From a virus: DNA of 64,000 nt. The notes below the pieces were generated by a model. The model was not told the DNA's origin. It did no database searches and worked only from the letters and a program-made list of their open reading frames with translations. The translations under genes and the position numbers were made by a program. Below, piece after piece: positions 9,967 to 64,000 of this stretch. Position 1 is the stretch's first letter; each line of letters opens with the position of its first letter. The DNA lies in the IMG/VR virus record IMGVR_UViG_3300046333_000120. One strand, written 5' to 3'.

Positions 9967-10887
9967 ATGGGAGCAAATTATGGTTACTGTTGTATCAATT
10001 TAACATTGGACAAACAAAAGGGAATTAAGATAGGTAGAAGTATGATTAAAAAAACCTTTCAAGCAAAGGGTATTAAATATGCAGGTGAGTTGGCCGAAGC
10101 CAACCTCAGGGATATGATTGAAATTCTTAAATGGAATAATGCAAATGGAATTACAATGTACCGTATGTCCTCTAGTATGTTTCCATGGAATTCAGAATAT
10201 GACATTGAAGAATTACCTAACTATAATACAATCAAATCCTTATTGAAAACTGCAGGTAATTATGCAACTAAGGTGGGTCAAAGACTTACATTCCATCCAG
10301 GTCCTTTCAATATTCTTGCAAGTCCAACACCAAAGGTTGTTAACGATGCAATATGGGAATTAACCCAACATGGAAAGGTATTGGATTTAATGGGCTTACC
10401 AAGAACTCATTATGCTGCAATGAATATCCACGTAGGTGGAACTTATGGAGATAAGGAATCTGCAATTTCTAGATTTGCAGAAAATTTTAAACTACTTCCG
10501 GAATGTGCAAGTTCAAGACTTGTTTTGGAAAATGACGATAAACCAAGTCAGTATGGTGTAAGAGATCTTTACGAGATTTATAAACTATGTGGAACTCCAA
10601 TTACATTTGACTTCTTTCACCATTTTTGTTACGAGGATTCTATGCCAGAAAAGGAAGCATTAGAATTATGTGCTAATACATGGCCAAATGACATTAGACA
10701 ATTATGTCACTATTCATCTTCTAAGAAACTACACGAGGATAACACAGTAATCCTAAGAGCACATGCAGATTATCTATATGAATTTATTGAAACCTATGGA
10801 ATGGACTTAGATATTGAAATAGAGGCCAAGGCAAAGGAACTTGCTCTTATTAAGTACCATAAAGAATTTTCAATGATATATAGTTAA
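9967..10887 (+). CDS. uvsE: UV-damage endonuclease UvsE/UVDE
   Basis: GYCCIN, YRMSS, FHPGPF, NIHVGG, LENDDK, FDFFHH, HYSSS, AHAD, IEAKAKE. Confidence 0.92.
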   Translation: MGANYGYCCINLTLDKQKGIKIGRSMIKKTFQAKGIKYAGELAEANLRDMIEILKWNNANGITMYRMSSSMFPWNSEYDIEELPNYNTIKSLLKTAGNYATKVGQRLTFHPGPFNILASPTPKVVNDAIWELTQHGKVLDLMGLPRTHYAAMNIHVGGTYGDKESAISRFAENFKLLPECASSRLVLENDDKPSQYGVRDLYEIYKLCGTPITFDFFHHFCYEDSMPEKEALELCANTWPNDIRQLCHYSSSKKLHEDNTVILRAHADYLYEFIETYGMDLDIEIEAKAKELALIKYHKEFSMIYS

Positions 10888-11411
10888 TGAATATATTTGA
10901 ATCAGAAGATACGTATAATGATTATCCAGTAGCTGCAAAGACCAATGCAAAAAAGGCGATTGAATGGAAAGAAAAGTATGGTAGAGATGAGGTAACTGCT
11001 GGAACTGCAGTTGGTTGGACTCGAGCACATCAATTAGCAAATGGAGAAAATCTATCAGCAGAAACAGTTGCTCGAATGTCATCATTTAATAGACATAGAA
11101 AAAATTCTAAAATTGCAACCGAATTTAAAAATGAACCATGGAAAGATAATGGATATGTTGCATGGTTAATTTGGGGTGGAGATGAAGGCATTGATTGGGC
11201 CATGGATAAAATGAAACAAATAAAAAAAGAAAGCAAATCTACAATGAAACATGTTAAATTATTTGAAGAGTTTTTAGAAGAAAAGAAAGGCCTATGGGAC
11301 AATGTATGGGCTAAAAGAAAAAGAGGTGAAGCTCCTGCAAAACCAGGAGATGAAGATTATCCAGACGAGGATGCATGGGATAGTGCACAGGGTAAAAAGA
11401 AATCTGAATAA
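10887..11411 (+). CDS. Two-module putative virion protein with internal MKHVKLFEEF leader
   Basis: N-module ends VAWLIWGGDEG. In-frame internal ATG 11244 starts MKHVKLFEEFLEE. Confidence 0.65.
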   Translation: MNIFESEDTYNDYPVAAKTNAKKAIEWKEKYGRDEVTAGTAVGWTRAHQLANGENLSAETVARMSSFNRHRKNSKIATEFKNEPWKDNGYVAWLIWGGDEGIDWAMDKMKQIKKESKSTMKHVKLFEEFLEEKKGLWDNVWAKRKRGEAPAKPGDEDYPDEDAWDSAQGKKKSE

Positions 11412-11869
11412 TGAAGTACATTAAGTTATTCGAAGAATTTTCAATCAATCAAATAACATGTGATACCTGTAAATGGAAATGGAGACTTGAAGATGGCGGA
11501 GATGATATGTATATTTGCCATAAATGCGGACATAATAACACGCCAATTCTTGGAGAATCATATATTCTTAAAGAACTTGAACCTAAATTCAATGTTATAT
11601 TAGATTTATATGATAATGGTAAATTCTTAGAATTAACTAGAATTGTTATTCCTAAAGAGGATAGAGGAAATGGAGTAGGTTCTGAGGTTATGGATAAAAT
11701 CAATGAGTATGCAGATCAAAAGGGTCTTAAAATATATTTGACTCCATCTAAAGATTTTGGTGCAACTTCAACCTCACGATTAGAAAAGTTTTACAAACAA
11801 CATGGGTTTATAAAGAATATTGATAAAAGCGAAACACGAAACACAATGGTACGTTTTCCTAGGAAATGA
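11411..11869 (+). CDS. GNAT acetyltransferase with leader peptide and Zn-ribbon
   Basis: MKYIKLFEEF leader, CDTC..CHKC, RGNGVGS acetyl-CoA motif, FYKQHGF. Confidence 0.8.
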   Translation: MKYIKLFEEFSINQITCDTCKWKWRLEDGGDDMYICHKCGHNNTPILGESYILKELEPKFNVILDLYDNGKFLELTRIVIPKEDRGNGVGSEVMDKINEYADQKGLKIYLTPSKDFGATSTSRLEKFYKQHGFIKNIDKSETRNTMVRFPRK

Positions 11870-12183
11870 AAACAAAGATAGATCAGTCACATATAGATGA
11901 CTTTATTGCTAGTTTCAAAAAATTTATTAGTGCATTAAAAAATGAAGGCGTTGAAACACAAAATGCATTTAAATTATTATACAGTCATGTATTGTCTAAG
12001 AAAAAAATGAGTAATACTGAAAAGGATTTAGTAGGAAACCAAATGCGTAATGTTTTAAAAACAATAGGACTTACTGCTATTGCAATTATGCCAGGAGGTG
12101 TTATTGTTGCTATATTAATAAAAGCTCTTAAACTTCAAAAACATATACTTCCATCTAGTTTTGAATATATGAATAAAAACTAA
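11866..12183 (+). CDS. LETM1-like domain protein
   Basis: Q..NVLKTIGLTAIAIMPGG..hydrophobic..LPSSF resembles the LETM1-related C-terminal domain of flavobacterial proteins. Confidence 0.5.
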   Translation: MKTKIDQSHIDDFIASFKKFISALKNEGVETQNAFKLLYSHVLSKKKMSNTEKDLVGNQMRNVLKTIGLTAIAIMPGGVIVAILIKALKLQKHILPSSFEYMNKN

Positions 12184-12224
12184 GATATATAAATTTGAAA
12201 TAATCATATAAAAAAAAAATCAAT

Positions 12225-12701
12225 ATGGCAAATATTAAATCATTTGAAGCCTTTGTTAACGAAATGGACAGAGCAGAGGAAATAGAAACTAAATTAAATG
12301 CAGTTGGAGAACCTGATGAAAAGGATGTAGAAGAAACTGAAGAAGAAGCTGAAGAAGTCCAAGAAGCTGAAGGAGTTACTCCAATTGGAATTAAAGAACC
12401 TGATGCAAACAAACAAAAGCTTCCAGTATATGCAATGCTAGAAAAATGTTATGAAGAAGTTATCGATGAAGCCAAAGTATGGGAATCTGATGCGCATGAC
12501 GATCATACGATAGAAACATATATGGCTGAAAATTCTGCATTAGTTGCAAAAATGGCAGTAGAAGCACTTACTGAAATGAAAGGTGATATGCAAACTGAAG
12601 CATTTGAAGCATGTTTAAATAAAATGTCAGAGGCTTATGCTAAAAAAATAAATGAGTGTAAAGACACTAAGGATGCAATAGATGCAGAGGATGTAGCATA
12701 A
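12225..12701 (+). CDS. Acidic putative internal head protein
   Basis: MANIKSFEAFVNE leader; Glu-rich; GATATATAA upstream. Confidence 0.6.
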   Translation: MANIKSFEAFVNEMDRAEEIETKLNAVGEPDEKDVEETEEEAEEVQEAEGVTPIGIKEPDANKQKLPVYAMLEKCYEEVIDEAKVWESDAHDDHTIETYMAENSALVAKMAVEALTEMKGDMQTEAFEACLNKMSEAYAKKINECKDTKDAIDAEDVA

Positions 12702-12709
12702 CACAAAAT

Positions 12710-12761
12710 TAAACTAAATAAAATGTCTATATATAATACTAAACATATATAGACTTTTTTT
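12710..12761 (+). promoter_or_regulatory. TAAAC-N17-TATAAT promoter overlapping terminator-like hairpin
   Basis: Promoter 12710-12737; GTCTATATAT/ATATATAGAC stem 12725-12754 followed by a T-run. Confidence 0.55.
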
Positions 12762-13283
12762 ATGCCTAAAATTCCGATTGAAATTATATACATGCAAGTT
12801 GCATATCAATTTGCAAAACTTAGTTATGCTAGTCGCCGAAAGGTTGGATGCGTTATCGTAAAGGAGAATCAAGTTATATCCTTTGGATATAATGGTACCC
12901 CTAAAGGATTTAATAATGACTGTGAGGAGATTAATATAGAAACCCAGTATTATGAAAATCCAGATGCTGCAATTATATTAGAGGAAGATTATGGGTTTTC
13001 ATGCAGCAATGGGTGTTGTACCAAAGAAACACAAATCACAAAGAGAGAAGTATTACACGCCGAATCAAACGCAATAATGAAAGTTGCAAAATCAACAATG
13101 AATTGTGATGGAGCTACGTTATATACAACCACATGCCCATGCTTCGATTGCGCAAAGTTAATTATACAGGCAGGAATTAGTAAAGTGTATTACACTGAAG
13201 ATTATAGAGATATGAGTGGTGTTGAATTATTACATACTGCAAATATTATTGTTGAACAAGTAAATGCATGGAATGAGTTTTAA
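12762..13283 (+). CDS. dCMP deaminase
   Basis: VGCVI, GYNG, HAESNA, PCFDC Zn-binding motifs. Confidence 0.92.
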   Translation: MPKIPIEIIYMQVAYQFAKLSYASRRKVGCVIVKENQVISFGYNGTPKGFNNDCEEINIETQYYENPDAAIILEEDYGFSCSNGCCTKETQITKREVLHAESNAIMKVAKSTMNCDGATLYTTTCPCFDCAKLIIQAGISKVYYTEDYRDMSGVELLHTANIIVEQVNAWNEF

Positions 13284-13476
13284 TAAACTAATAGTACCTG
13301 AAATTGAAGTACTTACAACTTTCTTAAAGGAAAATGGAAGCACTTTATTTTATATGAAATATGTAAAAAAAATAGATGTAATGATGGGAGACTGCGATGG
13401 AATTGATTTTATAGAAGATTTCGAAAATAAGTACTATGATACAGAAGATGATACAGAATTTCATTCATTGGATTAA
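13273..13476 (+). CDS. Hypothetical protein
   Basis: ORF track 13264..13476. Confidence 0.6.
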   Translation: MSFNKLIVPEIEVLTTFLKENGSTLFYMKYVKKIDVMMGDCDGIDFIEDFENKYYDTEDDTEFHSLD

Positions 13477-13504
13477 TAAACAATTTTATAAAAAGGAATA
13501 TAAT
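13477..13504 (+). promoter_or_regulatory. Putative promoter TAAAC-N17-TATAAT
   Basis: Recurrent motif directly after the upstream stop; implies the next gene starts at 13523. Confidence 0.55.
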
Positions 13505-13522
13505 TATGAAAATACACAAATA

Positions 13523-14047
13523 ATGGAAGTAGTGAAAGAAGCAGTTAAAAAATATCAATGGAAAAAAGGTGAAAACTTTGGGAAAGTTGTCGAAGTCTTA
13601 GAACAAGATGATAAATTTACAAAATTTACAGATGGTTCTCAGATATTTAATAATGTTATTAATGAATTTTTAGAAGAAGTAATTGGAGATAAATTACCAT
13701 TTCCAGGTGCAGATTCATTAAATATGTTAGCGATGGGTGAAATACAACCTAATGTTAAAAAAATTACAACTAAAACAAAACAAGAACCTATTATAGAAAT
13801 TTCTCCACTAGAAGAATTAGTTGGTAAACTTTCTAAAAAGAATATTGAACCATTAGAGACGGTTATTAATTTAAATATACCTAATAGGCAAATATTTAAT
13901 ATGTTAATTGAATCAGCGGATGAGGATAGAGATAATTTAATTGAAACAATTGCTAAAGTAGCTGTCTCACAAATAGAGATAAATAAATTGCAAGAATATT
14001 TAAAAGAAGAAGTAACAACATTTATTAATAAGTACTATAATGAGTAA
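13523..14047 (+). CDS. Hypothetical protein
   Basis: ORF track 13436..14047; start re-assigned to ATG 13523. Confidence 0.65.
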   Translation: MEVVKEAVKKYQWKKGENFGKVVEVLEQDDKFTKFTDGSQIFNNVINEFLEEVIGDKLPFPGADSLNMLAMGEIQPNVKKITTKTKQEPIIEISPLEELVGKLSKKNIEPLETVINLNIPNRQIFNMLIESADEDRDNLIETIAKVAVSQIEINKLQEYLKEEVTTFINKYYNE

Positions 14048-14432
14048 AGGAACATCACCGTCGAGAAAACAAACAAGGTCCCAATTTGGATCAATGGGTT
14101 ATTTAAAAGTTAAAAATATGTTTGGCAGATTTTCTGAAGAAGGGCAGGCCTGGTATGATAAAATGGCTGAAAATGGAAAAGCAGTCCATGACGCAAATAC
14201 TAATAGAACATTAGATAATATCGAAAACCAATTACAAACTAAACTAAATTCTGTAAAAGAAGTATGGATTGAAATGGGGCACAATGATTCAGAAATCAAA
14301 TTATTAGAAGAGGCATATTTATTGACAAATATTAAAAATAAAGAAACTCTTAAACAAGATAAAAAGGAAGTCAAAAGACTTATAAAAGAAGCCAAAGAAT
14401 CTTTAAATTCTAGATTAGATGCAAACAGTTAA
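14040..14432 (+). CDS. Hypothetical protein
   Basis: ORF in operon. Confidence 0.7.
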   Translation: MSKGTSPSRKQTRSQFGSMGYLKVKNMFGRFSEEGQAWYDKMAENGKAVHDANTNRTLDNIENQLQTKLNSVKEVWIEMGHNDSEIKLLEEAYLLTNIKNKETLKQDKKEVKRLIKEAKESLNSRLDANS

Positions 14433-14724
14433 AATAACATTAGCGGACAATGGGGTTATTAAAACCGTATTAGATGATAATATTAATTCTGCTGGAGAAA
14501 GTTTCGAATCAACTACGATTTATGATTTTGATAATAAGGAAAGTAAAATTAAATTTATCAACGAATTATGTGTTGACATTGGATTATCCTTTGGAAATTC
14601 AAAGAATAAAAAACAAATAAAAATTATCGAAGATTGGGGAGTTGATTATATACCCAGTGATTCCGAGAAATTAGAAAAAATAGATAGACTTAAAATTCAA
14701 TTAAAGAAATTAAGTGTATCATAA
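14419..14724 (+). CDS. Hypothetical protein
   Basis: ORF in operon. Confidence 0.7.
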   Translation: MQTVKITLADNGVIKTVLDDNINSAGESFESTTIYDFDNKESKIKFINELCVDIGLSFGNSKNKKQIKIIEDWGVDYIPSDSEKLEKIDRLKIQLKKLSVS

Positions 14725-14733
14725 CAATAATTA

Positions 14734-15138
14734 ATGAATAATTTAACAATTGAGTGTGTATGGTGTCCATCAAGACGTGAATTTAATAAGTTTATAAAAG
14801 AAATAGATAAAGTGTCAACTAAGGTAATTGACTATGCATCTATTAAAAGTAAACTTATTAAAGCAGATCCTTATGGACAAGAACCAAGTGACTCAGTTAT
14901 TGGATTAACCATAGTAAACGAAATTACGCGACATGTTCATGCATCAAATATGAATGTTAATCGCGTAATTTACTTATTTAAGAATCTTGAATATGATGTT
15001 GCTATTAATTTTACAAATTTAATAGAATCAAAATCAGAAAGAGAAACAACAATCATATTAACTGTTATACATAATAATGTAAAGGTAGATACTCGACTAA
15101 ACGATTTATTTCATCAAGTTAATATTATTAAAACATGA
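14734..15138 (+). CDS. Hypothetical protein
   Basis: ORF in operon. Confidence 0.7.
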   Translation: MNNLTIECVWCPSRREFNKFIKEIDKVSTKVIDYASIKSKLIKADPYGQEPSDSVIGLTIVNEITRHVHASNMNVNRVIYLFKNLEYDVAINFTNLIESKSERETTIILTVIHNNVKVDTRLNDLFHQVNIIKT

Positions 15139-18076: not shown

Positions 18077-18079
18077 TAA

Positions 18080-19555
18080 ATGGCATCAATAGACAATCAT
18101 ATATTAACGATAACAGAACCTACTATTAAATTAGATAAAATTGAATTTGCATCGATGGGCGAAGGCGAAGGAAATGATAACGCTAATTTATCTAAAGGTC
18201 TAAATTTGGTTATATCAATTAATAGATATATGTTTAATATGGAAAATATTAAAAGTATGTTAGTTGATTGTATGGGAATTTTACCTACAATAGATTTAGT
18301 ACTTATAGATACTAATGGACAGTTTAGCGTTGATACATTTCCACGTGATGGTGATGTAATAAATCTTAGAATAGGTTCACTTGACAAAAAAACATACAAG
18401 GATATTAGAATGGATTTCGATATTGTAAATGTTGAAACTCCACAACAAGGAGCTGATGTAAAGGGTGGTAAGTATATTTTTACAGGAAGACTTAAAGTGC
18501 CTGGTTTATACTCAGAGGATTGTAAATCGTATGGGAAAGGAACCTCATTAGACCATATAGAATCCATTGCAAACGATTTAAAATTAGGGGTGGCAACTAA
18601 TATCGATTCCGCCGATGATGAGATGAATCTAGTAATACCATTTAATTCAATGTATGATACACTAGAAGATCTTGTAAGGCACTCTTACATCGATGAAGAT
18701 AGTTTTCAAGCGTTTTGTATAGATCAATATTATTATGTTAATTATGTTAATTTAAATAAATTATTTGATTCTGAAGAAACATTGGAGGATGCTATTTTAG
18801 CATATGGTCCAGATTTTACAGATATGCCATCTGCAAATATTAAAGATGATGCCATAAATCAAGCTAAATTACCTCTTGTTTTTTCAAATCATATGAGAGA
18901 TCAAGGTACTAATAGATTTATATCTTCGCAATCCCTTAAAAATAGATCAGGCGCATCTGCAAAAAAGAATGGTTATAAAAGAGTTTTACAATATTATGAA
19001 AATGATTCTGAAGAGGGATTAGTTTCACACTATATTGAACCTCTTGCTAGTAAAAATATGAAAGATATCGATGAACCTATGAAAGGTAGGAGAGATGAGG
19101 ATCGATATAAAAATGAGATTAAATATAAGTATGTTGGAAGAAAATCAGGAGACCCTGAAACTTCAAATGTGCATCTTAACTATGAATATGCTGCGATTGC
19201 TAACGCACAAAATATTGATGAGGTTAAAAAAATGTCATTAGATATAGAATTACCAACGTTTAATCCGGCAATACACAAATATCATAAAATCCCTGTATTT
19301 ATTTATAATAATGATAATGATAGAATGTTAGCTGGAAAACAAATAAATGACGCAAAAGATAAAGGAGGATTTGATACAACAAAGATTGTCGATTCAAATA
19401 TAGGAAATCCGGCAGTTTACGTCATTGATGAATTTTTAAGTGGATATTACATAGTAGGAGGAATTCAATATATCTATAAGGCGGGTAACGCATCAGTTTC
19501 ACAAAAGGTAAATTTACTTAGAAGAGAGTGGCCAAGTAGAATAAATAATATTTAG
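18080..19555 (+). CDS. Putative baseplate hub (gp27-like)
   Basis: Position between LysM and gp5; C-terminal LSGYYIV..I.Y motif typical of hub proteins. Confidence 0.5.
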   Translation: MASIDNHILTITEPTIKLDKIEFASMGEGEGNDNANLSKGLNLVISINRYMFNMENIKSMLVDCMGILPTIDLVLIDTNGQFSVDTFPRDGDVINLRIGSLDKKTYKDIRMDFDIVNVETPQQGADVKGGKYIFTGRLKVPGLYSEDCKSYGKGTSLDHIESIANDLKLGVATNIDSADDEMNLVIPFNSMYDTLEDLVRHSYIDEDSFQAFCIDQYYYVNYVNLNKLFDSEETLEDAILAYGPDFTDMPSANIKDDAINQAKLPLVFSNHMRDQGTNRFISSQSLKNRSGASAKKNGYKRVLQYYENDSEEGLVSHYIEPLASKNMKDIDEPMKGRRDEDRYKNEIKYKYVGRKSGDPETSNVHLNYEYAAIANAQNIDEVKKMSLDIELPTFNPAIHKYHKIPVFIYNNDNDRMLAGKQINDAKDKGGFDTTKIVDSNIGNPAVYVIDEFLSGYYIVGGIQYIYKAGNASVSQKVNLLRREWPSRINNI

Positions 19556-19593
19556 CAATTTTGCGCACCATAATAAAAAACAATATATAATGT

Positions 19594-20832
19594 ATGTCAG
19601 ATTTTAGAAACGTATCGGATTTTAGAAAAGGTTCATTTAAAAAATATCCATATCAGGATCCTACATACCTTTCATTTGCTATTCTATTTGATTGGTATAA
19701 CGCCGAAGAATCTCCACTGTTAGCAGGAAGCGGTGATATCACTAAACCCGATACATTAGGTCCAGCTGAATTATTCTTATATGAATTAGGAAACGCTGGA
19801 GGAGATTCTAGTCAATATTATAAAAATAAATTTGAGGATCTTATTAATTTTAAAAAAGCGCTTAAAACAATTAATGATGAAATGCCATGGTACTGGCAAT
19901 CACTAAAGGGGCTTGAAAGAGTTGTACAGCATGATCCTATGAATGCATATTTAGGAGGTGATGATGCTAAAATAGAAATAGAAACATTAGAATCTCTTAA
20001 TTTACCAATTGCAGGTTTAATGCATTTGTATCGTAGCGCGATTTTTGATGAAACAAAGTGGACATATATACTGCCAATTAATCTTAGAAAATTTAAAATG
20101 TATATTTATGTTACTGAGGTTAGAAGTATTCAAACAAATATTAGTACTAAAACAAATGGAATTCCTTCTAAATTAAATAAAGATGCTGTTAGTGGATTTC
20201 CCGGTAACTTTAAACCTACGATTGATTCACAAAATGAAAATGCTGGAATTATGGGATCTTCCGGAAGACCATATTTCATGACAGGTTTAGGATATTGTGA
20301 ATTTGATATGACAACAGGTACTACTATTTTTGCAGATCTTTCTAAAAATCCAGAAATGGCAACAAATTCAATTACCTTAAAATACGAAACATTAGAAAAA
20401 GTTGAAGCAAGGGTACTTAATGGAATTATAGAGGAATCTGCATATGCAAAAAATAATGTATCTCCTTCACCTGATTCTGAATTTTTTGAAAATTCTGTTA
20501 AAACTCCATTACAATTAGCTAAAGAAAAAGCAACAGGAAGGATAGTTGATATTACAGGCAAAGGTATTGAGACTGCAAATAAATTAGTTGAAGATAAAAA
20601 AAGAGAAATTGAACAAGAAATTAGAACAAGGACTGTTAACCGAATTCCATCAATGGAAAATGTATTTTCAAACGTTGTTAGAAAAATAGATAATGCAACA
20701 GATGTTACTCAGCAAAAGAGAAATATAGGAAATGCAATACAGGCAAATGTTAATGGAAATGTAGTTGGGAGCACTCTTAAACAAGGATTAGATATTGCTG
20801 CTGTTAAAAACTTAGGAAATATATATAAATAA
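19594..20832 (+). CDS. Putative tail/baseplate structural protein
   Basis: Synteny in the baseplate cluster. Confidence 0.45.
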   Translation: MSDFRNVSDFRKGSFKKYPYQDPTYLSFAILFDWYNAEESPLLAGSGDITKPDTLGPAELFLYELGNAGGDSSQYYKNKFEDLINFKKALKTINDEMPWYWQSLKGLERVVQHDPMNAYLGGDDAKIEIETLESLNLPIAGLMHLYRSAIFDETKWTYILPINLRKFKMYIYVTEVRSIQTNISTKTNGIPSKLNKDAVSGFPGNFKPTIDSQNENAGIMGSSGRPYFMTGLGYCEFDMTTGTTIFADLSKNPEMATNSITLKYETLEKVEARVLNGIIEESAYAKNNVSPSPDSEFFENSVKTPLQLAKEKATGRIVDITGKGIETANKLVEDKKREIEQEIRTRTVNRIPSMENVFSNVVRKIDNATDVTQQKRNIGNAIQANVNGNVVGSTLKQGLDIAAVKNLGNIYK

Positions 20833-24546: not shown

Positions 24547-25350
24547 ATGAACAAGCTTAAGACATACTCTCAATTTTTAAACGAATCAAAACAAAATAAT
24601 ATAGTTAATGTTATTTTAGATGCACTAGAACCTACTATTGTTGAAATGGTATCTTCTACTGAAAAATGGTTTGTTGAAACATTTAAACAAGAATTTACTA
24701 AGTATGATAGAGAAATGGCAAGGCTTAATCTAATTTTTGATATGGTAAAAGCTATCGAAACATATACTCTTCCAACAGATTCGTTGATTTCATTGAATGT
24801 TAGTAAAAGTGCTAAAGGAAATATTCAAATAGATGCCCAAATTCAAAGAGGAGAAACTACTTATAGTTTTTTAACAGAAGCAATTTATACAGGAGGACAT
24901 AATATCCAAGTACTTCATTATAGATATATTGTTAAAACTAATCTTCCAAAAAATGGAGCTACTGAAATTACTAAAGAGTATGCCGACAAAATTAAGAAAA
25001 TGTCAAAGCTTGAAAAGTTAAATAAAGAAATAAATAGCTACACTATACGTATTAAAAATGCTGAAGAAAAGGTTGAAACTAATTCTAAAGTAACGGATGA
25101 AGAAATATTAAAAATCTTAAAATCTAGAGAAGATTGGAAAGAATCTCCAACATGGGAAGAGATAATCCGAAGAGATGCTGCTAAAAATTATAATAACGAT
25201 GAAGCGCACTACTACCAAGAACAAGAAAGATATTTAAATTCTAGAATAGAACACTGGAAATATCTAAATGTAAATTCAAATAAATCATGGTTAGTAGGAG
25301 CAGCAAAGGAACTTAAAAAACTACAATCTAAATTAGATTCATTGGTATAA
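24547..25350 (+). CDS. Hypothetical protein with capsid-targeting-like leader
   Basis: MNKLKTYSQFLNES. Confidence 0.65.
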   Translation: MNKLKTYSQFLNESKQNNIVNVILDALEPTIVEMVSSTEKWFVETFKQEFTKYDREMARLNLIFDMVKAIETYTLPTDSLISLNVSKSAKGNIQIDAQIQRGETTYSFLTEAIYTGGHNIQVLHYRYIVKTNLPKNGATEITKEYADKIKKMSKLEKLNKEINSYTIRIKNAEEKVETNSKVTDEEILKILKSREDWKESPTWEEIIRRDAAKNYNNDEAHYYQEQERYLNSRIEHWKYLNVNSNKSWLVGAAKELKKLQSKLDSLV

Positions 25351-26706: not shown

Positions 26707-27537
26707 ATGAGCGATATAATTATAGGAAATAATGATTTATTAAATGATCCAACATGGGGAAGTGATTGTTTTAATAACTTTGTTAACGAATTAGCAGATG
26801 AAATTACAGGTTCTTGTATGATTCCAATGAATCTTCCAAGAAAGGAAGTACAAAACATAGTATTGCGTGCTAAAAAATGGTTTTATAAAAATTATGAGTA
26901 CTCTGTTAGAGAGAATTTCATGGTTTTACCTGTAGAATTATTTGACTCTACCCACTTTAAAAGCAAAAGAAGTTTTACTTTACCTAAAATGGATTCAATT
27001 ACTGGAGGAAATGAAGTTTATTCAGTGTATGGATTATTTGAAGTTGGTGCAAACTGGGGAGGATCTATGGACATTAACTTTACTCAAGGAGATTTTTCTA
27101 TTGAAAGAATGTTAATGAGTGGAATGAGTGGTGGTTCTAGAACAGCTGATGCCGCAGAAAATTTACAATATTATGTAATTAATCAAAGTTTCTTTGATCT
27201 TGCCAGACAAATTATTCAAAATCCAATAGGATATCATTATAATCAATTAACACATGAATTAAGATTTACTGGAGAAACTCCGAAGAAAAATGTTATTCTT
27301 AATGTATATGAAACTATTCCAGAATGTGCATTATTTGATGATGAAATTTTCTTTAGATATTGCGCTGCAAAAATTAAAATTTCTTTAGGACAAAAATTAT
27401 CTATTTTTGGTTTTTCTCTTCCTGGAAATATTGAAGTAAATTCGGATGCTATTAAAGGATTAGGAGAAGATGAATTAGATAAAGTAATTGAAGAAATAAA
27501 AGGTGATGAAGGCGTAGATTGGATGATGCATTCTTAA
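26707..27537 (+). CDS. Neck protein, T4 gp13-like
   Basis: YCAAKIK..LG.KL..F...LPGNIEVN..I...G..ELDK matches the gp13 C-terminal pattern. Confidence 0.7.
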   Translation: MSDIIIGNNDLLNDPTWGSDCFNNFVNELADEITGSCMIPMNLPRKEVQNIVLRAKKWFYKNYEYSVRENFMVLPVELFDSTHFKSKRSFTLPKMDSITGGNEVYSVYGLFEVGANWGGSMDINFTQGDFSIERMLMSGMSGGSRTADAAENLQYYVINQSFFDLARQIIQNPIGYHYNQLTHELRFTGETPKKNVILNVYETIPECALFDDEIFFRYCAAKIKISLGQKLSIFGFSLPGNIEVNSDAIKGLGEDELDKVIEEIKGDEGVDWMMHS

Positions 27538-51092: not shown

Positions 51093-51104
51093 GATATATA
51101 AAGT

Positions 51105-51410
51105 ATGAAAACATTTGATGATTATATAAACGAAGGAAAGGTTACTATAGATAACCTAACATTTGCAATACAGACTATTGTAGATAGAAAGGGATTAGCT
51201 ATAACATTTATACCTGATTCAAAAACATTAGATACAATTCATATTAATGGTAAAAACACTATTGTAGATATTATTGAAAAGAAAATGGCTAAAAGTTCTC
51301 CACTAATATCAACATGTATGTGGTTTGAAGCTGGTCATGACGCTGCAGGATTTACGTTTAGAATTGATCCTACTGAATTAACTGACGAATTAACTAAAGC
51401 ATTTAAATAA
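51105..51410 (+). CDS. Small protein with capsid-targeting-like leader
   Basis: MKTFDDYINE; GATATATAA upstream. Confidence 0.65.
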   Translation: MKTFDDYINEGKVTIDNLTFAIQTIVDRKGLAITFIPDSKTLDTIHINGKNTIVDIIEKKMAKSSPLISTCMWFEAGHDAAGFTFRIDPTELTDELTKAFK

Positions 51411-51778
51411 TGAAAACATTTTTAGATTATATTAAAGAGGAAAATATATCCGATAAAGAATTAGCAATATTAACAGAATCTCTACAAACAGAGTGGACTG
51501 AAGAATTAGAAGCTAAAGTTGATGCTGCAATTGAAGAGTTTGCTTCAACATATAAAAATCTGGATGGTACTTATGATATTCATGCCTTTAATGAAGAGCT
51601 TACAAACGAAGGAGTATTAGGAAGCATATTTGGTGGATTGGCAGGTTTTGCACTTGGTAAAACTATTGGTAAAACACTGGCAAATATTCTTGGGATTACT
51701 TCAGGTATTATGTATGATATGTTAACTTCGAGATTAGTAGGAGCTGCATTAGGTTCTTCGCTTGGTAACAAAATATAA
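51410..51778 (+). CDS. Leader-bearing glycine-zipper membrane protein
   Basis: MKTFLDYIKEE, LTNE/G then GxxxG repeats GVLGSIFGGLAGFALGKTIG. Confidence 0.65.
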   Translation: MKTFLDYIKEENISDKELAILTESLQTEWTEELEAKVDAAIEEFASTYKNLDGTYDIHAFNEELTNEGVLGSIFGGLAGFALGKTIGKTLANILGITSGIMYDMLTSRLVGAALGSSLGNKI

Positions 51779-52436: not shown

Positions 52437-52444
52437 AGACTTAA

Positions 52445-52565
52445 GTTATATTGTCAGGGTACTGGATTGTTTCAGTAAAACTAAAAATAATTTAAAATAG
52501 TTTTCAAGTACCTATAAAAAGAATTAAAAATAGTACTGAAACTAAATTAAATAAAGATATATAAT
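52445..52565. promoter_or_regulatory. Divergent pair of GAAAC..TATAA(T/C) promoter-like motifs
   Basis: Plus strand GAAAC 52538-N17-TATAAT. Minus strand GAAAC 52473-N18-TATAAC. GTTTCAGTA/TACTGAAAC inverted repeat. Confidence 0.45.
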
Positions 52566-52596
52566 ACATGTACTAATATTTAAAAATGTATCATAG

Positions 52597-57174: not shown

Positions 57175-59124
57175 ATGGCAGAAGTTAATAGAATCTCATC
57201 ATTTAAAAGTTTTTCAGAGATTAAATCTCAAGAAAATGAAACTAAATTAAGAGAAGAAAACAATCTAAAGAAACAAGAAACACTATCTAAAATTGAAGAA
57301 ATTTTAGATGAGATGGGATTAACAAATCTATCTGAAATCGATGAAGATTCTCAGACAGCTTTCATATCTAAATTGTTAGGTAAAGAAACGAATGAAGGTA
57401 ATGCATTTGTATATGCTGCAGGTAAAGCTAAGGCAGATGGGAAAAAAGAATTTGAATTTAATGGTAAAACTTATAAAGTAACTATTAAAGACACTGGCAT
57501 CAAAGAAGATAATGAGATTATCGATGAAGCAATTAGCAGAAGTATATATGATAGAATGGATGGACTTCACAATATTAAAGCTATGAAATCTTTAATTGAT
57601 TCTGCGAAGACTATCTTTGATGATTTATCTGAAGAAATGTTTGAATTTGATGAAATCTGTGATTTCATTGTAATGAAAATAAAGAAAAGTAAATTAGCAG
57701 GAATGTATGAATCTGTAAATGAAGCAAGAATTAAAGCTCCTACTGCACTTCAAGAAATTATTGATGGCAATACATCAAGAGCTGAAGGTATTAAATTATC
57801 AAAACCAATGGCTGAACATATATTGAATTGGATTAATACATCAGCGTATGGTAAAAAGTATGGCAAAGATTTACCGTTAAACATGGTTATTAAGGCTTCA
57901 TTTAGTTGGGGTATTGAAAGAGGTTTAGATCCTAAATTGAAATCTGAATTAGATACATTAAAAGATAGTATTAAAGAATCTGTAATCAATGAAGCCAAAG
58001 TTAAGCAATTTGATGCTGACTTTAATGACATGGTTAAAAATATCAAATCAGGTTATGGTTGGATTGATCCAGAATATGTCGCAGATACTTGGGAAAATTC
58101 AAGTGACTCTGTTGATTTTGAATTAGTTAAAGGAGAAATCTACAAAAGATTAATTGCAGCAGGTTTATTAGCATATCCAAATCCAGATGATGAAGAAAAG
58201 AAAGGTGTGCCTGTTAGAAAATTGCAAGAACTTGGTATTAAAGAATCTATTACAAACGAAGCAACTGTTGAAGTAGATGCAACAGATCCTAAAGATAAAA
58301 ACCTTGCAAAACTATTAAAGAAACATAAAGTTTCGTTGGAAGTAATCAATAAAAATGGACCATCCGGATGGCCTGAAGTTAAATTAACAGGAGATATTAA
58401 AGATCTTAAAGCAGTTTTAGCAGATTCTGAATATGGATGGGATGATGAAGGCTTAGCAGATTATATTGAAGAATCAGTAGTTAATGAAGCTGAGAAATTT
58501 AAAAGTACTAAAGACTTTGAAGATTTCTTAGAAGAAATTGATGGTATGCCAGAGAACAGAATCAAAAGAATCATGGGTAAAGATTATATCGATACTCCAG
58601 GTGGATATAGAGATGAAGCTGATGATTATGATAACGATATTACAGAATACATGATTTCTAACATGGGTAAATCTGATTTTAATGAACTTAAAACATGGTG
58701 GGAAACCAATGTTGCTGAATCATTTATTAGTGAATCAAGTATGGGAGAAATCGATCAAATGGCACAAGATGCTAAAGATTTCAAATCATTTGTAAAAGAA
58801 TTTACAAAAAAATACCATGATTTATCCAATACAGGAGAACCTGGACAATTTAAAGAATGGTTACAATCTGCTTATGATGCAGCAAAAGAAAACATGGATG
58901 AATCATCAGTTACTGAAGCTGAAGTTAGTTCTGATGATGAATTTAAAGAATATGCAATGGCTGTTTTGAAAAAAGCATTTGGAGAAGACTTTGATGAAGC
59001 TAAGGCTGGTGAAGTAGTTGATGGAATTCTTAAAAAATGTGATGGAGACTATGGCGCATGTGTTGGAATGCTAACAAGTTCTCTTGGAGAATCGAATGAT
59101 ACCACATCATCTCAAGAATCTTAA
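57175..59124 (+). CDS. Putative packaged polyprotein of small modules joined by ES-x-x-NEA linkers
   Basis: SSFKSFSE leader; linkers ETNEG, EIIDEA, ESVNEA, ESVINEA, ESITNEA, ESVVNEA, ESFISES, ESSVTEA. Confidence 0.7.
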   Translation: MAEVNRISSFKSFSEIKSQENETKLREENNLKKQETLSKIEEILDEMGLTNLSEIDEDSQTAFISKLLGKETNEGNAFVYAAGKAKADGKKEFEFNGKTYKVTIKDTGIKEDNEIIDEAISRSIYDRMDGLHNIKAMKSLIDSAKTIFDDLSEEMFEFDEICDFIVMKIKKSKLAGMYESVNEARIKAPTALQEIIDGNTSRAEGIKLSKPMAEHILNWINTSAYGKKYGKDLPLNMVIKASFSWGIERGLDPKLKSELDTLKDSIKESVINEAKVKQFDADFNDMVKNIKSGYGWIDPEYVADTWENSSDSVDFELVKGEIYKRLIAAGLLAYPNPDDEEKKGVPVRKLQELGIKESITNEATVEVDATDPKDKNLAKLLKKHKVSLEVINKNGPSGWPEVKLTGDIKDLKAVLADSEYGWDDEGLADYIEESVVNEAEKFKSTKDFEDFLEEIDGMPENRIKRIMGKDYIDTPGGYRDEADDYDNDITEYMISNMGKSDFNELKTWWETNVAESFISESSMGEIDQMAQDAKDFKSFVKEFTKKYHDLSNTGEPGQFKEWLQSAYDAAKENMDESSVTEAEVSSDDEFKEYAMAVLKKAFGEDFDEAKAGEVVDGILKKCDGDYGACVGMLTSSLGESNDTTSSQES

Positions 59125-59140: not shown

Positions 59141-59190
59141 AATATGACCTGGATTTTTTCTAGGTCATATTTTTTTATTATATTTACAAT
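59141..59190 (+). terminator. Terminator hairpin fused to TATATTTACA promoter-like motif
   Basis: AATATGACCT/AGGTCATATT stem, T-run, then TATATTTACA as in the repeat modules. Confidence 0.6.
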
Positions 59191-60477
59191 ATGAAATCAA
59201 AAATCCTTAATTTTAATCAGTTTTTAACTGAAAAATACGAAGTAAGATTAAATGAACAACTCCTATTAGAAGGAGGTGCTGCAGGACATATGTCTCATCC
59301 ATTTGATGAAAGAGACCTTACATTTAGTGACTTTAAGAAAATAATCGAAGCAGGTCTTTCGGGAGATTTAACATTTGAAGAAGATCCAACTGAAAAAACA
59401 GATGGACAGAATGTCTTTGCTACTGTCCAAGATGGTCAAGTTAAATTTGCAAGAAATAAAACTGAACTTAAGAATCCAATGGATCTTAATACATTTAAAC
59501 AGAAATTTACAGGACATCCAAGCAAAATGGTTGAAGAGACATTTCAATTTGCTGCAGAAGATTTAGCACATGCACTTATTAAATTGTCAGCCAAAGATTT
59601 AGAAGCATTTGATAATGGTAAGAATTTCATGAATATGGAGCTTATATATTCTAAGAATCCTAATGTTATTTATTACGATAGAGACATCATACAGTTTCAT
59701 GGGATTAAAATAACTGACGGTGAGGGTAATATTATCGGAGATGATAATAAATATGCTAGATCTATTGCAAAGGCCTTAGAAGATGTCAAGGCACACATAG
59801 GAAAGGTATTTACTATTATTCCTCCACAAATTATCAAGATAGGTAAGGATATAGATTTTAATATTAATAAATCCAAATTTATTAAAAAGGTAGAAGACTT
59901 AAAGAATCGTTATAAATTAACAGATGCCGATGAGGTTTCTAAATATCATGAAATGTGGTGGAGAGAATTAATAGACCAAAATTTCCCAGATTTAACACAG
60001 GATTTTAAAGAAGGTTTATTATTAAGATGGGCATATGATGATAAGAAAACTCTTAATTTAAGAAGTTTAGATAAAGAACTTGGAAAAGATAAAGCAGAAC
60101 TTATTAAGAAGTTTGATAAAGAAGATGTTAAAAAGAAATATAAAGAAAACATTAGACCATTTGAGGATTTATTTCTTGAATTAGGAAGTGTTATCTTAAA
60201 GAATGCAAGTAACTTTGTTGCTGCAAACCCAAAGGCAGAAATGCAAAGATTACATACCCAGATTAGAACAGAAGCTGAAAATATTAAATTGAATGGTGAT
60301 ACTGCTCAAATTGATAAAGTAATGTCAGAGCTTGAAAGACTTGATAGAATTGGAGGTATTGAATCAATTATTCCTACTGAAGGTATTGTATTTGTTTACA
60401 AAGGAAAAACTATGAAACTTACAGGTACATTTGCTGCCATCAATCAATTAATGGGTATCATTAAGTATGGTAGATAA
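59191..60477 (+). CDS. Leader-bearing ATP-dependent ligase-fold nucleotidyltransferase
   Basis: ILNFNQFLTE leader, LLE/GGAAGHM, motif I EKTDG, motif III MELIY, motif IV EGIVF, motif V MKL. Confidence 0.65.
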   Translation: MKSKILNFNQFLTEKYEVRLNEQLLLEGGAAGHMSHPFDERDLTFSDFKKIIEAGLSGDLTFEEDPTEKTDGQNVFATVQDGQVKFARNKTELKNPMDLNTFKQKFTGHPSKMVEETFQFAAEDLAHALIKLSAKDLEAFDNGKNFMNMELIYSKNPNVIYYDRDIIQFHGIKITDGEGNIIGDDNKYARSIAKALEDVKAHIGKVFTIIPPQIIKIGKDIDFNINKSKFIKKVEDLKNRYKLTDADEVSKYHEMWWRELIDQNFPDLTQDFKEGLLLRWAYDDKKTLNLRSLDKELGKDKAELIKKFDKEDVKKKYKENIRPFEDLFLELGSVILKNASNFVAANPKAEMQRLHTQIRTEAENIKLNGDTAQIDKVMSELERLDRIGGIESIIPTEGIVFVYKGKTMKLTGTFAAINQLMGIIKYGR

Positions 60478-60495
60478 ATAAAATAAATAATAGAC

Positions 60496-60813
60496 ATGAA
60501 ATATACACAAGCGTTTGAATCATTTATTAATGAAGCTACTGATAAACCAACTTTAGATTCTTCAACTGGATTAATCTATTACTTCGATATTCCTTTCACA
60601 TCAGAAGATATGGAAGAATTATTAAGTGCAAGTAAAATGGTATTAAATGGAAAATTTACTCCAAATAAACAGTTTGAAATCCAACCGATGATTTTTATTA
60701 AAGATAAAGTTAATGGTGGAGAACATACATTTAGTGTTACACAAATTGGATTATTAGGCTCTTTTTATAATAAGAACAAAGACAGTGTTGCATCTAGATC
60801 AGATTTCAATTAA
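60496..60813 (+). CDS. Small protein with capsid-targeting-like leader
   Basis: MKYTQAFESFINEA. Confidence 0.65.
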   Translation: MKYTQAFESFINEATDKPTLDSSTGLIYYFDIPFTSEDMEELLSASKMVLNGKFTPNKQFEIQPMIFIKDKVNGGEHTFSVTQIGLLGSFYNKNKDSVASRSDFN

Positions 60814-60828
60814 TATAATTTAATAAAA

Positions 60829-62724
60829 ATGGCATTACAAAAATTAAGAGAGTATTTTAACGAAACCAATAGAGAAAATTTTATTGAAATGTTAAAAAGT
60901 AGGGTGTTAGTGACTGAAAAGATTGCAGCACCATCTTTTCTTTTTAAAAGAAATACAGATGGATTTGAGTTTTATAAGTCTTCAACATCAGATAAATTAA
61001 ATTTTATTGATAGAACAGTTATATCACTATATGAAATGGCAATTAATCATTTACAGAGTTTACCAAGCGATGTAAAATCTCAGTTTCCATTAGATTGGAA
61101 ATTTGGATTTGAATATTTACCAGAAACCAAAGCGTCTAATATAGATTATGCCACAACTCCAACCAATAGTTTAATTCTTACACACATTCAACAATTGAGT
61201 GAAGGTGGAAAACTTAGAAAAACTATTAATGATCCATTAATTTTAAATAAATGGGCTAAATTATTAGAAGTGCAATCTCCCAGTGTTATTTTTGATGGTT
61301 ATATGTCACAACAACAAAGAGATGAACTTCTAACCGTATTATCAATGAGTGATAGAGAATTCTCAGATTCATTTGATTACGCAATAGAAACTGAAGATAA
61401 AACAAGTTTCACTTCAAAGATATTTAAGATGTTTAATCCAAATATCTATTCAACTGCACTAAATCCAGATCTTGAAACTGAAATTGATGGATTAGTTATA
61501 AACTTCATAGAAGCAAAAACAATGAAGTCATTTAAACTTGAAGATTTTTTAAGAGCTTCCGCTGATAAAAGAGATTTAAGAGCTTCTAGCCATACTTACC
61601 AAATTGCTGTAACTGATTTCTTAGAGTATATCATACAGCAAGATCTGAACGATATTAATTTAGAAGATGAACATGCCGATCATAGATACTTAGAATTAAT
61701 GTCAGTTTTATTTAATGGATATATTGATAAAAATTCTTCAAAATATATTGGTGTTAATTTTGAAAGTGCAGAATTTTCAGAAGCACAATCATTTAGATTA
61801 AATACCAAATATATTAAAAATGAAAAAACATTAAAATTTGTAAATAATGAAGTACTTGCTGAATTATTTAAAATGGTTTTAAGTTCTTTTAGAAAGAAAA
61901 GAACTAAAGAATCAGACTTAATTGACAAAGATACAATGTCAAGAATGAATGAAATTATTGATGCAATTAATGAAAAGATATTTGTAGAAAATACAGATGA
62001 AAATGCAATATACGATTATACTAATTTTATGTTACATAATAAGATTAAATCTTCAGTAAATTTAAATGAAGCTCTTACAGTAAAACACATGGAACAAGGT
62101 AAACAACCCGTAAATATGTTTGTTGGTAGATTTCAACCATTCACATTAGGGCACGCTAAGGTATTAGAAACAATGAATAAGGAAAATGGATTTCCAGTAG
62201 TTGTATTTTTAGTTAAATCTAAGGTTAAAAAGGGCGAGGAGTTTAGTAAACCATACGATGAAAAAACACAAGTTGATATGTTTAATCATGTCAAAAAACA
62301 ATATCCTTTTTTAAAGGAAATATATGTTGTTCCTAATGCTGCAATCGATACATTATATAATGAGATGAGACCGAAATATGAACCAGTATTATGGGGAACA
62401 GGATCTGATAGAATGAAAGGATATGGATATATGGTTAATAATGATTCTTATAGAGACCAATTAAATGCTAGGGCAGATTTTGGATTATTTGAGATTCCAA
62501 GAACAGACGATAATATTTCAGCAACCAAGGTTAGAAACGCAATGTTAGATGGAAATGAAAAAGATTTTCAGACAATGACACCTAAAGCTATTCATGGAAT
62601 GTATAAAGAATTAAAGTCAAAATTAGAAGATGCTATTGGAGTTGTTCACGAAAATATTGAAAATTCAGAAGAAATCATGACATTTGAACAATTCATAAAT
62701 AAATCTAAATATATAATCTTATAA
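60829..62724 (+). CDS. Fusion of degenerate ligase-fold domain and HxGH cytidylyltransferase-like nucleotidyltransferase
   Basis: N-part VTEKI..FEYL..IDGLVI..FKL; LNEA linker; GRFQPFTLGH, GSDR, ISATKVR. Confidence 0.7.
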   Translation: MALQKLREYFNETNRENFIEMLKSRVLVTEKIAAPSFLFKRNTDGFEFYKSSTSDKLNFIDRTVISLYEMAINHLQSLPSDVKSQFPLDWKFGFEYLPETKASNIDYATTPTNSLILTHIQQLSEGGKLRKTINDPLILNKWAKLLEVQSPSVIFDGYMSQQQRDELLTVLSMSDREFSDSFDYAIETEDKTSFTSKIFKMFNPNIYSTALNPDLETEIDGLVINFIEAKTMKSFKLEDFLRASADKRDLRASSHTYQIAVTDFLEYIIQQDLNDINLEDEHADHRYLELMSVLFNGYIDKNSSKYIGVNFESAEFSEAQSFRLNTKYIKNEKTLKFVNNEVLAELFKMVLSSFRKKRTKESDLIDKDTMSRMNEIIDAINEKIFVENTDENAIYDYTNFMLHNKIKSSVNLNEALTVKHMEQGKQPVNMFVGRFQPFTLGHAKVLETMNKENGFPVVVFLVKSKVKKGEEFSKPYDEKTQVDMFNHVKKQYPFLKEIYVVPNAAIDTLYNEMRPKYEPVLWGTGSDRMKGYGYMVNNDSYRDQLNARADFGLFEIPRTDDNISATKVRNAMLDGNEKDFQTMTPKAIHGMYKELKSKLEDAIGVVHENIENSEEIMTFEQFINKSKYIIL

Positions 62725-62740
62725 AATAAAATTAAAATAA

Positions 62741-64000
62741 ATGAGCACATTTGATAAATATCTAAATGACATGAATAATACGTTAAATGAGAGGTCAATT
62801 AACAAAATTCAAGCAGAATTTACAGATGTAGTAACTAAAATGTCAGCAATGGCAAAAGAATATGCTACTACAGAAGGAGATGAAAAAACAAATATTCTTA
62901 CAGAATTAAAAGGATTAACTGCAAAGAAAAATGAGTTAATAAAGGAACTCGATAATGCAGTAGCAGGAAAGGATAAAGATGTCCAATTAGCTATTAAAGA
63001 ATCTGAAATTAATGAAGCATATGGAAGCTCTAATCCTCATGCAAAACCAGCGGGTCTTGATAAAGAAGAAACTATGGTTATAGCTCAAAAATTTGCAGAT
63101 GCAATGTCTAAAGCAGAAGGAGCTAAAGTTACTGTAAATAAAAGAACATTAGAGGAAGATTCATTTGATTTAGATTACAATGGAGAAGAATTTGATGGAG
63201 GTTCATATAACATCTACCAAAATGGAAATGTTATGAATATGGCATTAAGAGATAATCCAGTATATGGTAGAAAAAACGATAGTGTAGATACTATTGCAAA
63301 GAATATGAAAAAATTCATGAGCGAATCAGTAGCTAATGAAGGTAGACATATTACTCTTAAAAGACAATACACTGGAAACCATCCTGCAACCACCGTTGGA
63401 AAAATTGCAGCTGTTAGAAATAAAGTGTTAGAGGCAATTAAAGATGGTAAAATACCACAAGAACAATTTGAAAAAATAGTTTCTGAAATTTCTAATAACT
63501 CTAAAAGATGGACAAAAAATAACTCAAAATATTTTACAATATCAGAAGACGGTGTTTCACTTTCTGGTTTTGGTAAAAAAGTACTTTCAAGTATAACAGT
63601 TAATGAAGCAGATTTTAAAGAATTTCCAAAAGGTTATAATCCAGAAATATGGGTACCTGGTAATTTTGATAAAGCTATTTCCAAATATTCAAATGCAAAA
63701 TTAACTAGAAAAATTGTATTGGATGCTGCTAAAAAATGGGATGTTACACCCGAAGATGCTATTAATTATGTAGAATTTGGATGGCATGTAGATTTATCAG
63801 AAAATATAAATATAAATATAAATATGAAAACAAAATTTATTTACGAATCATTTAGCGAATTCATTGGAGCTTTAAATGAATCTAATGAAATATTAAATGA
63901 AGCATTTGCTTCTACAAAACTTGCAAGTCTTTTAACAGGCGCAAATGCAATGCCAAAGGATCTTCCTGCTGCATTCTATAATATGTCAAAATTAGCTCTT
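62741..64000 (+). CDS. Second putative packaged polyprotein (runs off the window; not in ORF track)
   Basis: Open for 420 codons: MSTFDKYLN..TLNE, ESEINEA, ESVANEG, ITVNEA, then internal MKTKFIYESFSEFIGALNESNEILNEA. Confidence 0.75.
   Translation, partial: MSTFDKYLNDMNNTLNERSINKIQAEFTDVVTKMSAMAKEYATTEGDEKTNILTELKGLTAKKNELIKELDNAVAGKDKDVQLAIKESEINEAYGSSNPHAKPAGLDKEETMVIAQKFADAMSKAEGAKVTVNKRTLEEDSFDLDYNGEEFDGGSYNIYQNGNVMNMALRDNPVYGRKNDSVDTIAKNMKKFMSESVANEGRHITLKRQYTGNHPATTVGKIAAVRNKVLEAIKDGKIPQEQFEKIVSEISNNSKRWTKNNSKYFTISEDGVSLSGFGKKVLSSITVNEADFKEFPKGYNPEIWVPGNFDKAISKYSNAKLTRKIVLDAAKKWDVTPEDAINYVEFGWHVDLSENINININMKTKFIYESFSEFIGALNESNEILNEAFASTKLASLLTGANAMPKDLPAAFYNMSKLAL

Follow-up and report, generated by a model that had tools for sequence, protein, structure and literature searches.

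Are the short, similar peptides that start otherwise unrelated phage proteins capsid-targeting sequences of the kind known from phage T4? The question is raised by a 64,000-nt stretch of viral DNA (IMG/VR record IMGVR_UViG_3300046333_000120; this whole stretch is called the window hereafter), for which a preliminary description listed twelve such leader peptides and proposed that a transferable address label, resembling the capsid-targeting sequence (CTS) of the T4 internal proteins (IPs), loads at least ten different proteins into the head. All twelve peptides were recovered at their coordinates in open reading frames (ORFs) of the + strand. The comparisons below make it likely, in our judgment, that the leaders are T4-type capsid-targeting propeptides, and that some of their carriers are protease-jointed cargo polyproteins with modules swapped between relatives. 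The phage would then probably inject a varied kit of proteins together with its DNA.

As a strict pattern we used [FYW]xx[FYW][ILVM]xE, that is, aromatic-x-x-aromatic-aliphatic-x-Glu, inside the first 13 residues, which is satisfied by T4's own tag. Six of the 66 ORFs in the window start with this pattern (12225, 24547, 51105, 51410, 59191, and 60496, each named by its first nucleotide), where 0.36 were expected from its internal rate (Poisson P = 2e-6). The expectation was 0.14 when whole proteins were shuffled and 0.16 when only residues 2–20 were shuffled, and none of 5000 shuffles of the latter kind attained six. For comparison with a close relative, we walked along contigs encoding identical or 93% identical proteins; the DNA of this relative is 90–93% identical to that of the window. 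The six strict leaders are listed here by position and strand (aa, amino acids).

12225–12263, + strand: leader of 13 residues on an acidic 158-aa protein.
24547–24585, + strand: leader of 13 residues, with an LNE end followed by Ser, on a 267-aa protein of unassigned function in the baseplate gene block.
51105–51134, + strand: leader of 10 residues in the T4 register (aromatics at 4 and 7, Ile at 8, Glu at 10, then Gly) on a 101-aa protein; kept in the relative.
51410–51439, + strand: leader of 10 residues in the T4 register on a 122-aa protein with a glycine-zipper C-terminus.
59191–59232, + strand: leader of 14 residues on a 428-aa KxDG ligase-like enzyme; a variable linker separates the leader from the conserved LEGG...GHM..HPFD core.
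60496–60534, + strand: leader of 13 residues, with an INE end followed by Ala, on a 105-aa protein.

Four further N-termini (62741, 57175, 11411, and 60829) are looser, and the leader lengths overall are 10–15 residues. The 62741 leader has Asp where Glu is expected, and Glu is present in the relative. ORF 57175 starts F-K-S-F-S-E, one residue short of the pattern, and 11411 has F-E-E-F with neither the aliphatic residue nor the Glu. We did not retain the start of 60829, L-R-E-Y-F-N-E, among the leaders, since homologues do not conserve the Glu. The earlier count of at least ten tagged proteins therefore stands for six in the strict sense and otherwise leans on these four looser starts, one of which (60829) is not conserved. 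Two of them are entered as leader features.

62741–62770, + strand: leader of 10 residues, the tenth being Asp; it opens a polyprotein that is cut off by the window end and whose counterpart in the relative has 982 aa.
11411–11440, + strand: leader-like start without Glu on a zinc-ribbon and GNAT acetyltransferase.

Strict copies also lie slightly further from the start in two other proteins, at 26767–26790 (residue 21 of ORF 26707, directly before the start of a PHROG head-tail-adaptor match) and at 14776–14802 (residue 15 of ORF 14734); these may be longer propeptides. Separately, the tagged 122-aa protein (51410–51778) ends in a long Gly/Ala/Leu-rich, glycine-zipper-like stretch with a weak match to Pfam PF05433, and could be a membrane-active ejection protein.

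The pattern was compared with the T4 determinants. The T4 IPII and IPIII sequences start M-K-T-Y-Q-E-F-I-A-E↓A (the arrow marks the cut) and IPI starts M-K-T-F-K-E-F; the gp23 maturation site, F-G-S-F-L-T-E↓A, fits the same pattern. For loading, the first ten IPIII residues are enough; residues 4 and 7 mainly serve targeting and residues 8 and 10 processing, an Asp at position 10 prevents cutting yet leaves targeting and loading intact, and gp21 cuts after L/I-x-E (PMC9026906). In the window, both aromatics equivalent to CTS positions 4 and 7 are present in all six strict leaders, in 62741, 57175, and 11411, and in the internal and C-terminal copies described below. The aliphatic residue and Glu equivalent to positions 8 and 10 are both present in the six strict leaders but not in 11411 (no Glu), 62741 (Asp), or the C-terminal copy (Lys). 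The fixed positions of the window leaders are thus exactly the four mapped in T4, which supports the CTS reading. After removal of the first 16 residues, the tagged proteins gave no BLASTP match to one another, indicating that the cargo is mutually unrelated. Since the leaders also vary in their codons and in-between residues, what they share is a selected peptide pattern rather than recently copied DNA.

Conservation was assessed in the family of the ligase-like protein 59191. The motif is present in 119 of the 119 full-length proteins among its best 120 homologues (79–99% identity), in which the approximately 30 residues around the motif are hypervariable and the linker varies in length. Among 59 distinct 15-residue contexts, F/Y occupies both aromatic positions in all 59, the second aromatic is F in 57, and the Glu is invariant; one variant reads T-Y-Q-E-F-L-A-E, almost T4's tag. 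LR756500, a 462-kb uncultured phage, carries the leader on a syntenic gene (34% identity), and three neighbours of that gene are also leader-bearing. No strict leader was found in the first 34 kb of Tenacibaculum phage PTm1, and in Microcystis phage Mel-JY01 the 59191-type enzyme is fused with a cytidylyltransferase in the opposite order, as a leaderless 639-aa protein (2323–4242 in the coordinates of that stretch). As to the enzyme itself, E-K-T-D-G is invariant among the homologues, and no significant Pfam or PDB sequence match and no significant fold match were obtained. In the fold search, T4 Rnl1 and other RNA ligases ranked top at non-significant E values of about 0.8–1, from a model with a predicted local distance difference test score (pLDDT) of 67. 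The leader is a low-confidence predicted helix followed by a disordered linker. The KxDG protein of cyanophage S-CAM1 gave no BLASTP similarity to 59191, and we claim no homology between them.

The tagged proteins are also distinguished by sites matching [ILVT]NE[AGS]. Sixteen such sites occur in the 20.6 thousand residues of window proteins, 14 of them inside tagged ORFs; when the leader ends are set aside, 11 lie in tagged and 2 in other ORFs (Fisher P = 7e-8). Such sites return at intervals of 45–100 residues in ORFs 57175 and 62741, where they lie in near-identical E-S-(V/I)-x-N-E↓A joints with mutually unrelated segments between them.

57175–59124, + strand: polyprotein-like ORF of 649 aa, with a loose leader and modules on E-S-(V/I)-x-N-E↓A-type linkers; five strict sites and more loose ones.
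62741–64000, + strand: the other polyprotein-like ORF, incomplete in the window; it has four strict N-E↓(A/S) linkers and, at 63824, an internal copy of the leader that begins with Met.

Both polyproteins differ by whole modules between the window and the 90% identical relative, and the module at 58465–58724 belongs to the 57175 polyprotein in the window and to the 982-aa polyprotein in the relative. A tblastn search with the 57175 polyprotein gave no match. Two long proteins of the tail-fibre block with one site each, ORF 35294 (residue 28) and ORF 38998 (residue 726), were considered as cargo and dropped.

The same cut motif occurs among the head genes of the relative, where a T4-type portal gene, a gene for a 116-aa acidic protein with a leader-like start, one for a 650-aa S77 protease-scaffold, and one for a gp23-type capsid protein follow in this order. 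The 650-aa protein combines an S77 protease domain with a scaffold; after the protease domain it has RVNE↓S and FINE↓G, and close to its C-terminus MINE↓A. The capsid protein starts M-A-N-L-I-N-E↓S. Thus (I/L/V/T)-N-E↓(A/G/S) is common to the window polyproteins, the leader ends, the capsid N-terminus, and the protease-scaffold of the relative. LR756500, PTm1, and Mel-JY01 likewise encode S77 proteases and gp23-type capsid proteins. In addition, the scaffold of the relative (12600–13080 of its contig) contains eight copies of Y-x-x-Y/H-L/V/I-A/x-E, partly at a 14-residue spacing, of which five fit the strict leader pattern (P = 9e-6), and six loose copies are found in the LR756500 scaffold. 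From these repeats we infer that, in this lineage, the tag may mimic a repeat through which the scaffold associates with itself. The motif was not found on replication proteins; an equal frequency there is what the preliminary description had named as refuting its proposal. In the same 50 kb of the relative, the DNA polymerase pieces, ribonucleotide reductase, UvsX, DnaB, gp46/47-like nuclease, clamp loader, and RNase H have neither leader nor site, and one tail-sheath-stabiliser-like protein has a single site.

Evidence from virions comes from cyanophages. S-SZBM1 ORF140 (with its neighbour ORF139) and S-CREM2 gp154 were detected in CsCl-purified virions by liquid chromatography–mass spectrometry (PMC9146016, PMC10665884), and cyanophage cytidylyltransferase/NMNAT-like enzymes have been detected time and again in purified virions (PMC9146016, PMC10665884, PMC9602691), a frequency that two papers note without giving a reason. 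When we read the genes of the cytidylyltransferases S-SZBM1 ORF140, S-CREM2 gp154, Syn9 gp184, and that of P-TIM40, each encoded an N-terminal tag followed by Ala. The cytidylyltransferase domain of the window is 25% identical to that of P-TIM40 over 171 residues (E = 4e-6). The neighbourhoods are also alike, with a helicase, a KxDG ligase-like gene, the cytidylyltransferase, and multi-module proteins including a DUF3008-like module, whereas the window enzyme is the C-terminal half of a two-domain protein and its conserved tag is C-terminal. Full-text literature searches returned no paper that ties a CTS to cyanophage or marine phage proteins or to their virion detection. As a side observation, the MazG-like pyrophosphatase of Syn9 (74–475 in the coordinates of that stretch) starts with a strict copy of the motif.

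An alternative is that the leader is an amphipathic helix unrelated to the head, such as a Clp degron or adaptor handle, a membrane or oligomerisation helix, or a feature of translation starts. The leader is indeed predicted, at low confidence, to be helical, and AT-rich gene starts favour Lys, Phe, Asn, and Glu codons. However, the shuffles within residues 2–20 never gave the observed count. A helix of this kind would also leave unexplained the identity with the mapped T4 positions, the link to N-E↓A joints, whose other occurrences are in the capsid protein and in the protease-scaffold, and the virion detection of tagged cyanophage enzymes. We consider this alternative unlikely.

Copies of the tag also lie away from the N-terminus. 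A conserved one is found near the end of the cytidylyltransferase/NMNAT-like protein 60829.

60829–62724, + strand: two-domain protein of 631 aa, with an N-terminal domain, an (L/V/M)-N-E↓(A/G) joint at 62056–62073, and a cytidylyltransferase/NMNAT-like domain.
62677–62703, + strand: C-terminal tag copy with Met, both aromatics, and the aliphatic residue kept and Lys for Glu; a variable spacer and h-x-E (62638–62652) lie upstream.

The N-E↓A/G joint lies exactly between the two domains and is kept in all junction variants listed among the homologues. The C-terminal copy is present in 119 of 120 homologues (62–92% identity), with Lys or Asn at the Glu position, and is better conserved than the spacer ahead of it; h-x-E occurs at most 16 residues upstream in 110 of the 119. 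As judged from these alignments, the copy is not a decaying remnant. It looks as a removable C-terminal loading tag would, with T4 Alt as precedent. Alternatively, enzymes of this family may simply end in a helix of their own, as cyanophage cytidylyltransferases end in a similar F-S-D-F/Y. The virion-detected S-CREM2 gp154 (3109–3969 in the coordinates of that stretch) also ends with such a copy, I-M-F-K-N-F-I.

Internal copies are found at module boundaries, one of them in ORF 10887–11411.

11244–11282, + strand: internal Met-led leader in ORF 10887–11411, between a conserved N-domain of about 115 aa and a DUF3008-like basic module.

Among 96 distinct homologues, 32 have a leader, usually Met-led, directly behind the 10887 N-domain, and the modules behind such leaders differ (DUF5824, GNAT, a DUF3008-like basic module, and others that are unknown). 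In the homologue P0253, the zinc-ribbon GNAT that forms the separate next gene, 11411, in the window is fused behind the N-domain. The 57175 polyprotein has internal copies at 58510 and 58774, which are 10 and 17 residues past linker sites, and the copy at 63824 in ORF 62741 is Met-led with sites after it. These internal copies are best read as leaders retained when tag-plus-cargo units became fused. Position-independence of the tag, which the preliminary description had suggested from the internal and C-terminal occurrences, thus appears plausible from the conserved C-terminal copy and its upstream h-x-E, and draws less from the internal copies, which could be such retained leaders. The N-domain itself (10887–11240, about 115 residues, ending W-G-G-D-E-G-V-D-W-A) is 60–83% identical across hundreds of marine phage proteins and matches no Pfam family. 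It stands alone, at the C-terminus, or at the N-terminus before a leader and modules (DUF5824, GNAT, NUDIX, DUF3008-like), and looks like a carrier or adaptor module.

The peptides might be substrates of the prohead protease only, as an inactivating propeptide or a cut mark, with loading brought about by the cargo fold or by a carrier domain. The positions that vary least are those of Glu and the aliphatic residue, the capsid protein N-terminus has the cut part without aromatics, and the 10887-type N-domain, very conserved and carrier-like, is found attached to many cargoes. On the other hand, the aromatics are just as conserved as the cut residues and are the targeting determinants in T4. Moreover, the C-terminal copy retains the aromatics and loses the Glu, which fits binding rather than cutting. 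We therefore rate a substrate-only role as improbable. A further explanation is that the leader and linker repeats are recombination joints of mobile cassettes, kept for gene shuffling and not for protein function, as the module exchanged between the 57175 and 982-aa polyproteins and the GNAT cargo joined to the N-domain in P0253 might suggest. The leaders, however, share a residue pattern and not nucleotides, their codons differ, and homologous recombination works poorly on stretches of 10–14 codons whose third positions vary; this makes the explanation very unlikely, and the shuffling more plausibly follows from the tags being modular. A chance or compositional artefact, conceivable in a genome of 30% G+C with a pattern refined after inspection, is already refuted by the shuffles, the strong enrichment, and strict conservation over hundreds of homologues, and its probability is negligible.

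Capsid targeting is thus the reading that we favour, and the following points weigh against it. Three to four of the listed leaders are without the Glu or the aliphatic residue, and the exact pattern was partly fitted after data inspection, though the T4 CTS satisfies it. Gene 24547 sits among baseplate genes. Glu is mostly followed by Lys/Arg in the 59191 family, in contrast to the small residue at most other sites. The protease, scaffold, and capsid genes lie outside the window and were read from the 90–93% identical relative, and the scaffolds of T4 (gp22), PTm1, and Mel-JY01 have no leader-like repeat. Virion detection of cyanophage enzymes could be carry-over (PMC10665884). Finally, scaffold binding, actual cleavage, packaging, and ejection are steps that we infer for this phage. 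The proposal of a T4-like leader on unrelated cargo is therefore strengthened by the CTS positions, the linkers, the head sites of the relative, the conservation, and the cyanophage virions, and packaging by this phage is the part of it that stays conditional.

If the leaders are capsid-targeting propeptides, the two aromatics, three apart on a short N-terminal helix, would dock a protein to the scaffolding core of the assembling prohead. The aliphatic-x-Glu would be the cut site of the gp21-family (S77) prohead protease, and the tag would be removed after shell closure. Proteins 57175, 62741, and 60829 would be loaded as single chains and cut by the same protease at E-S-(V/I)-x-N-E↓A-type joints, giving small internal proteins and separate enzymes, and the cargo would exit the head with the DNA. 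Across related phages, tag-plus-cargo units would act as cassettes, undergoing fusion, splitting, and transfer from one gene to another. We offer only tentatively, as possible but doubtful, the wider idea of a plug-and-play cargo system in an abundant marine T4-like lineage. In it, one address peptide would work N-terminally, internally, or C-terminally and mimic the 14-residue repeat of the scaffold, and the cut joints would allow enzymes (ligase-like, NMNAT-like, and GNAT) to be strung together and swapped for delivery to the host as a kit.

The putative system shares with T4 IPI, IPII, and IPIII an N-terminal peptide of 10–14 residues with aromatics three apart and aliphatic-x-Glu on otherwise unrelated cargo, a gp21-family protease in the lineage, and, for the 51105 and 51410 leaders, the identical register. 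It differs in having about ten tagged genes in 64 kb, compared with three in T4, in cargo that includes enzymes and multi-module polyproteins, in its conserved C-terminal and internal copies, and in a preferred cut motif of (I/L/V)-N-E; the window system is also known from sequence alone. Encapsulin cargo-loading peptides are similarly short and transferable and route unrelated enzymes into an HK97-fold shell from either terminus. Unlike the tag, they bind the shell protein directly and are not removed by a protease, and neither DNA nor ejection is involved. T4 Alt, an ADP-ribosyltransferase, is likewise an enzyme that is packaged and processed by gp21; it loses propeptides at both ends, and the core proteins gp67, gp68, and gp22 are cut at several sites (PMC9026906). 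The Alt leader, however, is not an IP-type CTS, and the window strings unrelated modules together with near-identical joints. In phiKZ, 201phi2-1, and SPN3US, a gp21 homologue cuts ejection or inner-body proteins at S/A-x-E, and many of these proteins are cut more than once (PMC9026906, PMC5694885). These phages resemble the window in having many head-internal proteins cut after Glu, but their propeptides mostly exceed 100 residues with no short consensus tag, and lineage and cut motif are different.

If the reading is correct, the T4 CTS would be a conserved loading code of abundant ocean phages rather than a T-even curiosity, and injected proteins would be predictable from sequence alone. 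It would also account for the recurrence of cytidylyltransferase/NMNAT-like enzymes in cyanophage virion proteomes. Candidates for action in the first minutes of infection would be the ligase-like protein, the NMNAT-like protein, the acetyltransferase, the glycine-zipper protein, and many small modules. For engineering, design rules for loading phage heads with foreign proteins are suggested by the conserved C-terminal copy and by the protease-jointed cassettes.

The G+C content of the window is about 30%, and every gene lies on the + strand. According to PHROG matches, accessory and nucleotide-metabolism genes occupy 1–15.7 kb, T4-type baseplate and fibre genes, including a gp5-like hub, a gp6-like wedge, and a tail-tube-like gene, form a block at 15.8–51.1 kb, and RuvC, a gp32-type single-stranded DNA-binding protein, primase, and helicase are encoded at 51.8–57.1 kb. 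By this gene content, the window phage is a distant member of the T4 superfamily. Its DNA similarity to isolates is nearly nil, as blastn against a phage collection gave weak matches to PTm1 and an uncultured huge phage only. Marine metagenomes, Tara samples among them, very commonly contain proteins 79–93% identical to those of the window, on contigs of up to 235 kb.

The preliminary description had also noted (G/A)ATATATA upstream of many leaders. The motif RATATATAR does precede six tagged genes (10887, 12225, 24547, 51105, 57175, and 62741) but is not specific to them, since baseplate and tail genes have it too.

51093–51101, + strand: example of RATATATAR; others are at 10875, 12184, 24535, 57134, and 62708, and ahead of baseplate and tail genes.

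Its 24 copies, compared with 17.6 expected, are no overall excess over chance; 21 of them lie on the + (coding) strand, most within 70 nt upstream of a start codon. By this placement, RATATATAR is a general late-type, promoter-like motif, and its occurrence before both tagged and virion genes fits late expression.

Several minor features were seen along the way. In the relative, a 229-aa NUMOD3 homing-endonuclease gene (2526–3215 of its contig) lies between the RuvC gene and the next gene; it is not present at about 52440–52590 in the window, which has its own homing-endonuclease-like ORF at 6888–7742. The family-B DNA polymerase of the relative is encoded by two ORFs of 465 and 398 aa (13712–15109 and 18705–19901 of its contig), with both ribonucleotide reductase genes and a 253-aa ORF between them. 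In the window, the product of ORF 4522–5322 has a DnaJ-type J-domain at its start.

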